NCBI RefSeq assembly: GCF_003334335.1
Contig: NZ_QOWQ01000071.1
DNA length: 7,669 nt
Source of the DNA: Escherichia coli
Lineage (GTDB): Bacteria; Pseudomonadota; Gammaproteobacteria; Enterobacterales; Enterobacteriaceae
Direction: 5' to 3' (one strand)
A model generated the notes under the pieces. That model was given only the letters and a program-made list of their open reading frames with translations. It searched no databases and was not told the DNA's origin. The translations under genes and the position numbers were made by a program. Positions 1,381 to 2,568 of the stretch are shown here, piece by piece (position 1 is the first letter of the stretch; each line of letters begins with the position of its first letter).

Positions 1381-2568
1381 CCTTTTCTGGCGTATTCGTC
1401 ATTCCATTCGTATCCCCGGTACCGGATGTTTATATCGTACAGTGCCGGTGCTGGCATGCTTTCCTGCAGGTCTGCACCGGTTTAACAAACAAAACTTAAC
1501 AGAGTCTGAAGGAGTAGTATTCCGTGCAAATAACCGAAGCGTTACTTTCAGAGCCGGGAGATATCTGGCGTTTTGTTCAGCAGGCGGTGGACCACTGGCC
1601 GCGTCTGCTGGCAGTCCACTTCACGCGTCATTCGACCAGAGTAAATATTGATGATTACTAGATTCGTGTATTTTATCAGGCATTTTACTTGCGAATAAAT
1701 CCCCTTGCTATCCAGCGAAACCACACAGGTAGCTATTACCATATGTGGTAATACACTAGTTACAGGAAAAATATGCAAGTTCCGCAATACGTTGTGTGTT
1801 GCTCCTTAGCCAGGATCTTTTCTTCCATGCGAGATATGACAACAATTTTGAGGAAGGATGTTCGTAACTGGTAGAGTTACTACAACAAGCATGGGAGGCT
1901 CTGACTCTGACAGACATTGTACTGTGGAATGTTGTTACAGGTTGGGGCGGCAACCGTGCCAGGAGACCATGAGCCGTTCACGGCATTAAAGGCCACACTT
2001 CAGTCGTTTACATTCCCTATGGTGGCAGGCATCTTCCATTAAGGCGTCAGAGCGTTACCAACGTTATGTTGTCATGGCTCATCTTTCATAGTCGATGCTT
2101 ATCTGGTGGCTGAAACTAGCCGCAGATAAAGAGTGTGAAGTTGATACCATGGAGTGGAGTGACGTGCAGGCAGGAGATTCGCTCTATGCAGGGTTGTGAG
2201 ATGAATTCAAACCGGCTGGCAGCGCCAGTGATATTCGAAGATTCGTCCGGTTGTTACCCAGTATGCATTAAAAACCCAGACATTATGGACAATATAACGG
2301 CTTCTACAACAAGGAAGTGCCTGTTTACCATCCGGGTGTAATGACTCACCTTTGTGGGCTTTTGCCCGTCGCGCTCTTAACGTTGAAGACATTCTCTGCC
2401 TGCCGATTCAGGACTGCGACAAAAGCCATATCTGGCTACTGGTCAAGGATGACCAGCGTCTGGAGTAGGTGATAAGCCAAATAGATAAGCTGGAATATGT
2501 GGTGAAAGTGCAACGTAATCAGTCCAATCCGACGATGTTTAACAAGATTGTGGTGTTTTTTCAGTAAG

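Follow-up and report, generated by a model that had tools for sequence, protein, structure and literature searches.

A decayed ilvN fragment beside deoQ argues against a recent Salmonella origin of the deoxyribose block in Escherichia coli islands

We analyzed a 7,669-nt stretch of Escherichia coli island DNA (assembly GCF_003334335.1, contig NZ_QOWQ01000071.1; hereafter the window) that carries the deoxyribose block deoQKPX. Positions 2327–2567 of the window very probably hold a non-functional relic of ilvN, brought along when the deoxyribose block was formed. The relic is of no importance as a gene, being a dead partial duplicate of ilvN, and is useful as a marker of provenance. As judged from sequence comparison, it argues against a recent Salmonella origin of the block, and we infer that the source chromosome was of the E. 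coli lineage rather than Salmonella.

A sequence-only reading of the window had described a plus-strand frame at 2298–2567, interrupted by one amber codon and ending back-to-back with deoQ, as the C-terminal part of a decayed gene of no assignable family. Translation of 2298–2567 on the plus strand reproduces the peptide given there, with TAG at 2466–2468 and TAA at 2565–2567, and a single base (2568) separates the stops of the two converging frames. The frame has 88 sense codons (56 + 32) rather than the 89 that were counted, and the in-frame codon preceding 2298 is TAA. That it represents the C-terminal part of a decayed gene is borne out by sequence, synteny and a neutral substitution pattern, and the gene is ilvN. 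Residues 21–89 of the peptide align with residues 30–98 of PDB 2lvw_A, the small subunit of E. coli AHAS I (phmmer, E = 3.9e-34); the deposited chain has 98 residues and is matched to its last residue, and IlvN itself has 96 aa. The NCBIfam model NF006036 matches over profile positions 35–102 of 102 (E = 7.6e-30) with a score of 102.9 bits, below the curated cut-off of 128 bits, and in this frame nothing aligns to the N-terminal third of the profile. At the DNA level, blastn aligns 242 nt to native E. coli ilvN with 91.3% identity. The fragment is the C-terminal five-sixths of ilvN, which encodes the regulatory, ACT-domain small subunit of acetolactate synthase I.

The extent of the homology differs from that of the open frame. 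We used sensitive blastn against 44 loci with native or deoQ-linked ilvN (more than 30 ilvN genes from E. coli and other genera), and the match starts at window position 2327, corresponding to ilvN nt 50, at every ilvN-matching locus. The 49 nt on the 5′ side of 2327 agree with ilvN nt 1–49 at 14 of 49 positions, and other offsets are no better. An ATG at 2285–2287 ('MDNITAST...') was considered as the decayed ilvN start and rejected for the same reason. Base-level alignment with native E. coli ilvN and the ilvN genes of five other genera confirmed the amber codon but revealed a second lesion that the description of a single internal stop had missed: one base is deleted at 2359–2363, 105 nt upstream of the amber codon, where the window reads CTTTT, native E. 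coli ilvN CTTTTT and other genera CTGTTT. It follows that residues 1–21 of the peptide as quoted are either out of frame or unrelated to IlvN. Only 2361–2564 of the frame is ilvN in frame, and a second frame at 2327–2360 encodes 11 residues corresponding to IlvN residues 18–28. The features of the remnant are as follows.

2298–2326, plus strand: part of the originally described frame that is not ilvN; island DNA attached at the breakpoint (14 of 49 positions agree with ilvN nt 1–49)
2327–2567, plus strand: ilvN pseudogene remnant, equivalent to ilvN nt 50–291 (codons 17–96 and the stop), 241 nt instead of 242
2359–2363, plus strand: frameshift, one base lost from the Leu28-Phe29 codons (base-level alignment; both frames seen)
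2466–2468, plus strand: amber codon replacing Gln64, CAG to TAG (alignment)
2565–2567, plus strand: original ilvN stop TAA, 1 nt from the deoQ stop (2569–2571, minus strand)

Compared with E. coli ilvN (PDB 2LVW, 5YPP; NF006036), 69 of 80 codons are unchanged and the stop occupies the same position, whereas the first 49 nt of the gene with the start codon and codons 1–16 are missing, as is the ilvB partner, and the remnant has acquired the deletion, the Gln64 amber, missense changes and a neutral mode of evolution. The uninterrupted frame of about 96 codons with a start codon that is expected of an IlvN family member is absent. The repaired frame carries ten missense changes, and conserved IlvN residues are replaced, including G38D and D74Y. 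We found no IlvB similarity within the window by tblastn, and no ilvB or further ilvN similarity upstream by sensitive blastn; with the same query, tblastn does detect ilvB beside ilvN at the native locus and in over 25 other genomes. The amber codon and the 1-nt deletion are common to three diverged E. coli alleles, namely the window (NCTC 86 type), L002 and L003, the last in a third island context.

The remnant is already known in that it is annotated in RefSeq as a pseudogene (window 2341–2567), flagged 'frameshifted; internal stop'. PGAP names it 'acetolactate synthase small subunit' or 'ACT domain-containing protein', and example locus tags are B0915_RS26850 (NCTC 86) and AC6I36_RS08155 (21AH007). 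The PGAP feature starts at the ATG at 2341 (Met22), whereas homology to ilvN starts at 2327.

Next to the remnant, deoQ is divergent from deoK-deoP-deoX, and all four genes of the block are intact. The deoK operon is known from islands of pathogenic and commensal E. coli (the PAI of strain AL862 and ROD 40 of NCTC 86), and the window is 99.4–99.9% identical to NCTC 86. The block and its flanks comprise the following features.

1427–2326, no strand assigned: left flank of the block, also present in L002 (92%), without a recognisable gene family (comparison with L002)
2569–3351 (start at 3351/3354), minus strand: deoQ, DeoR-family repressor, intact (ORF, tblastn map, RefSeq)
3630/3657–4577, plus strand: deoK, intact (ORFs, tblastn map, RefSeq)
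4605–5921, plus strand: deoP, intact (ORFs, tblastn map, RefSeq)
5933–6946, plus strand: deoX, intact (ORFs, tblastn map, RefSeq)
6947–6979, plus strand: what is left of the ancestral deoX-uhpA spacer, with the hairpin GCGCTTATCGCTAAGGTAAGCGC (6956–6979)

None of the seven ORFs of the left flank (1524–2392) has an NCBIfam match. One plus-strand ORF of 45 aa (1524–1661) corresponds to RefSeq WP_001411495.1, a 'UCP030791 family putative phage-derived protein', and the segment 1427–1634 has relatives of 83–92% identity beside YagK/YfjJ-type genes in other E. coli. Within the block, identity between the window and L002 varies from gene to gene (deoQ, 95.9%; deoK, 99.7%; deoP, 98.6%; deoX, 97.1%). 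This mosaic divergence points to either recombination among alleles or constraint that differs strongly from one part of the block to another.

A DeoQ scan of species-representative genomes yielded 42 loci. The order uhpA-deoX-deoP-deoK / deoQ / ilvN-ilvB with an intact ilvN is found in more than 25 genomes, including Salmonella arizonae, diarizonae and S. enterica proper, several Citrobacter, Pseudocitrobacter, Klebsiella indica, Trabulsiella, Leclercia, Silvania and others. Most of them carry a complete ilvN of 96 codons that converges on deoQ. The last sense codons of ilvN and deoQ are 7 nt apart in Salmonella, Citrobacter and Pseudocitrobacter, and the same spacing is found in the window. 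The window is collinear with the intact loci from 2327 to about 6940–6983; at 6979 it ceases to be collinear with other genera and with the remaining E. coli alleles. Gene order, orientation, the stop-to-stop junction and the spacer after deoX are shared with the chromosomal ilvBN/deoQKPX/uhpA locus of Salmonella enterica, Citrobacter, Pseudocitrobacter and further Enterobacteriaceae. In that locus ilvN, ilvB and uhpA are intact, whereas the window retains only ilvN nt 50–291 and part of the spacer, set in island DNA, and its DNA identity to these chromosomal loci is only 76–80%. The K-12-type sequence that follows the ilvN stop (CCGCTCAAGGCTTGAACA, hairpin, T-run, uhpA) is the sequence that follows the deoX stop in Salmonella, and thus deoQKPX is a clean insertion or deletion at this point. 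Adjacency of ilvN and deoQ is widespread, not universal: Superficieibacter, Phytobacter massiliensis and one MAG (among loci L018, L031, L039 and L045) have 1.3–5 kb of extra DNA between the two genes, and Dryocola, Cedecea and several others have no ilvN within 6 kb of deoQ.

At the far end of the block, the window keeps the hairpin (6956–6979), identical to the one found after ilvN in K-12 ahead of uhpA, has lost the T-run and then diverges. L002 and L003 continue past deoX with the full 74-nt spacer followed by uhpA nt 1–63, and this uhpA stub is frameshifted (spacer plus stub at L002 11043–11176 and L003 10606–10733). In 5426 complete E. coli genomes, all best matches on the uhpA side stop at uhpA nt 63, and chimeric queries bridging each junction found an intact ilvN or uhpA junction in none of them (0/5426). 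Since the ends are fixed at ilvN nt 50 and uhpA nt 63, capture of the block was probably a single event. We propose that one rearrangement would have excised the segment bounded by ilvN nt 50 and uhpA nt 63, setting it in island DNA, that the block may afterwards have spread among E. coli islands, and that the version in the window would later have lost its uhpA end. With a single nucleotide between the stops of ilvN and deoQ, every cut sparing deoQ has to fall within ilvN or past it, and a piece of ilvN was bound to accompany the block. The block is present in about 28% of complete E. coli genomes. With lesions shared between alleles, fixed breakpoints and an intact copy elsewhere in the genome, the remnant is a unitary pseudogene or passenger fragment on the margin of a transferred block.

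We compared the remnant with the ilvN genes of candidate source lineages. Identity is highest to native E. coli ilvN (91.3%), followed by Pseudocitrobacter, the best deoQ-linked ilvN (83.4%), and Salmonella (76.8–78%; S. enterica, 76.8%). In a neighbour-joining tree, the three remnant alleles are sister to native E. coli ilvN with 100% bootstrap support. The comparison with non-coli Escherichia used a single species, Escherichia sp. E13S3. The ilvB-uhpA region of E13S3 is 91.9% identical to that of E. coli and has a K-12-type junction without deo genes. At 23 of 26 decisive sites where E. coli and E13S3 differ, the remnant agrees with E. coli, and the clade of remnant and E. coli has 98% bootstrap support when E13S3 is added. 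The second flank (spacer plus uhpA stub, 134 nt) shows a modest preference for E. coli (87–88%) over Salmonella (83–85%). The placement in the E. coli lineage, which we regard as probable, draws on these 134 nt and on the 241 nt of decayed ilvN sequence.

The deo genes are 75–84% identical at the DNA level to those of Salmonella and Citrobacter, with third-position identity of 48–59%. For E. coli's own ilvB, ilvN and uhpA, third-position identity to the same genera is 56–72%. By this measure the deo genes are as far from Salmonella and Citrobacter as E. coli ilvB, ilvN and uhpA are, or slightly further. DeoQ of S. enterica is 84% identical to that of the island, and none outside E. coli exceeds 87% among 5.8 billion proteins. 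The island deo genes have no sampled close relative outside E. coli. In the concatenated DeoQKPX tree, the island proteins form a deep branch of their own within the Citrobacter-Salmonella-Pseudocitrobacter clade (98%), outside the tight Salmonella clade. Their sister group is Pseudocitrobacter (92%), and E. coli ilvN has the same nearest outgroup.

The identity of DeoQ proteins shows a gap, with E. coli alleles at 92–100% and all others at or below 87% (5.8 billion proteins). The protein search returned nothing between 87% and 92% identity, and so no intermediate DeoQ that would name a donor. Two matches near the lower edge of the gap were considered as donor intermediates and rejected. The match at 87% (P0020/L048) belongs to the same E. 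coli-type island with a deletion inside deoQ; this locus, on a JGI metagenome contig, is 98–99.6% identical to the E. coli-type island, and its deoQ product has 227 aa. The match at 85% is Pseudocitrobacter-like.

The simplest reading of these comparisons, and one that we hold to be reasonably probable, is an excision of the block from the ilvN-uhpA region of a chromosome of the E. coli lineage that still carried deoQKPX. Because the ilvN stub groups with the ilvN of E. coli, and not with that of Salmonella or another Escherichia species, the block may be what survives of an old chromosome of the E. coli lineage, a piece that was rescued while the main lineage lost it from the original site. 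An intact E. coli-like ilvBN-deoQKPX-uhpA arrangement was found in no genome sampled, including the 5426 E. coli.

E. coli-like flanks would also result from conversion by the resident ilvN or from an older integration of deo genes at the E. coli ilvN-uhpA site. In the second of these routes, homologous recombination in the flanks would first have brought foreign deoQKPX into the native ilvN-uhpA site of a chromosome of the E. coli lineage, and an island would later have captured the genes; the capture would have included the ilvN and uhpA ends of E. coli itself, and the native site would have reverted or been lost. We consider this sequence of events rather unlikely, although it accounts both for the E. 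coli-like flanks and for deo genes lacking close relatives, and the clean indel boundaries at the ilvN stop and the spacer permit such an exchange. No donor is known, however, and the deo genes and E. coli ilvN share Pseudocitrobacter as nearest outgroup at comparable divergence, which simple vertical descent in the Escherichia lineage predicts without the extra transfer step.

A recent import of ilvN with the deo genes from Salmonella enterica or Citrobacter, followed by gene conversion by the resident ilvN, is in our estimate improbable. Salmonella does share the gene order and the junction, and a resident ilvN of 91% identity in the same cell is a possible conversion donor. Against such an import stand the divergence of the deo genes from both genera, the 84% identity of S. 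enterica DeoQ with nothing outside E. coli above 87%, and the branching of DeoQKPX outside the tight Salmonella clade. Conversion meets its own difficulties. The 22 differences between the remnant and native ilvN are evenly spread and the longest identical run is 31 nt, arguing that there is no recent gene-conversion tract. In addition, the tract would have to extend over the fragment as far as its last 12 nt in all three alleles, and conversion would have to involve the uhpA flank as well.

The primary paper proposing a Salmonella origin of the block is reportedly that of Bernier-Febreau, from 2004. The deoK operon has been described in E. coli islands, and the block has been reported to allow E. 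coli to grow on 2-deoxy-D-ribose (PMC5382810; PMC7545054). Salmonella has been given as the probable source of the deoxyribose block (PMC5382810). These deoK-operon papers (PMC5382810, PMC7545054) quote the Salmonella origin and leave the ilvN fragment unmentioned, whereas the fragment itself points to an E. coli-lineage source. None of the papers surveyed mentions the fragment, and none of them names both deoK and ilvN. The block is a fitness factor, and its gene stubs (ilvN here, uhpA in the sister alleles) point to a single cut from the ilvN-uhpA chromosomal site. An origin in the E. coli lineage would revise the history of a single metabolic island to a modest degree and involves no new biological mechanism.

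To characterize the decay of the remnant, we compared the three E. coli alleles by codon position. Substitutions between remnant alleles at codon positions 1/2/3 number 10/4/5, 10/7/7 and 4/5/4, in contrast to 1/0/30 and 0/0/34 between intact ilvN orthologues (Fisher p ~1e-7). The remnant pattern is not different from uniform, and this flat spread over codon positions indicates neutral decay; the concentration at third positions that marks purifying selection is absent. The remnant is 92.9% identical between the window and L002, compared with 92.1% for the non-coding left flank, 94.5% for the deoQ-deoK spacer and 99.7% for deoK, and thus diverges as fast as the non-coding flank. L003 has a further 1-nt deletion in the remnant and an IS3 truncation at window position 2346. 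The interrupting element (L003 2478–5961, strain F5656C1) is an IS3-family transposase pseudogene with a group II intron (ltrA), which cuts the block at that position. A native ilvBN match is present in 5422 of the 5426 complete E. coli genomes, block carriers included, and strain FDAARGOS_536 has both native ilvBN and a remnant copy. Taken together, the sequence comparisons describe what is very probably a non-functional, neutrally decaying and redundant relic of ilvN.

We asked what roles the fragment could still have. Because only 1 nt lies between the deoQ stop and the fragment, transcripts of deoQ have to terminate within the fragment or past it, and the fragment might be kept as the 3′ untranslated region or terminator of deoQ. 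This is very unlikely. We found no terminator-like sites on either strand in 2100–3700, the antisense RNA of the fragment folds no better than shuffled sequences (z = −0.72), and a search of Rfam over the fragment returned no known RNA. The fragment diverges at the rate of the non-coding flank, and L003 tolerates both the truncation at 2346 and the extra deletion.

A related possibility arises because deoQ transcripts have no recognisable terminator: RNA reading through from deoQ would be antisense to ilvN and could act in trans, lowering acetolactate synthase I. Its complementarity to the resident ilvBN mRNA would be 91% over the final 241 nt of that message. If true, such an effect would couple branched-chain amino-acid synthesis to the presence or expression of the deoxyribose regulon. 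Given that the fragment is decaying neutrally, regulation of this kind is unlikely, and we give it only a slight chance.

The fragment as a still-functional small ACT-domain protein, or as a recoded gene translated by read-through of the amber codon or from an internal start, is extremely improbable. Some RefSeq records are named 'ACT domain-containing protein', and the last 32 codons are still open. The same records, however, mark it as a frameshifted pseudogene containing an internal stop. The ilvN register contains no start codon, the first 49 nt of the gene are absent, and a frameshift lies 105 nt upstream of the amber codon. L003 carries its additional 1-nt deletion and the IS3 truncation, the codon-position pattern is flat, conserved residues are replaced (G38D, D74Y), and the score of 102.9 bits falls short of the NCBIfam cut-off of 128. 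Recoding or programmed read-through is expected to leave constraint on both sides of the stop; here the stop is conserved, and the expected constraint is missing, with a frameshift upstream.

That the frame is non-coding DNA free of stops by luck can be dismissed as next to impossible, even though its length is unremarkable, given the E-value of the match to IlvN, the 91% DNA identity to native ilvN and a position beside deoQ that is conserved in more than 25 genomes. The window contains 40 stop-free stretches of at least 56 codons, compared with 47 ± 5 in dinucleotide-preserving shuffles, and 48 adjacent pairs of stretches totalling at least 88 codons, compared with 52 ± 6 in dinucleotide shuffles. 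The length of the frame is within chance, and it is homology, not length, that makes the remnant real. The sequence-only reading had named two findings that would speak against it, a length within chance expectation and the lack of any protein hit; the first holds, but a strong protein hit exists, and the reading as a gene remnant stands.

Two further features lie outside the block. On the minus strand, a UxaA-family dehydratase pseudogene occupies approximately 207–1457 (ORFs 207–644 and 726–1457); in RefSeq it is annotated as frameshifted, with an internal stop and a missing N-terminus. On the plus strand, 7317–7439 is a full-length Rfam match to isrC, an Hfq-binding sRNA (RF01387, 150 bits, E = 1.5e-37).
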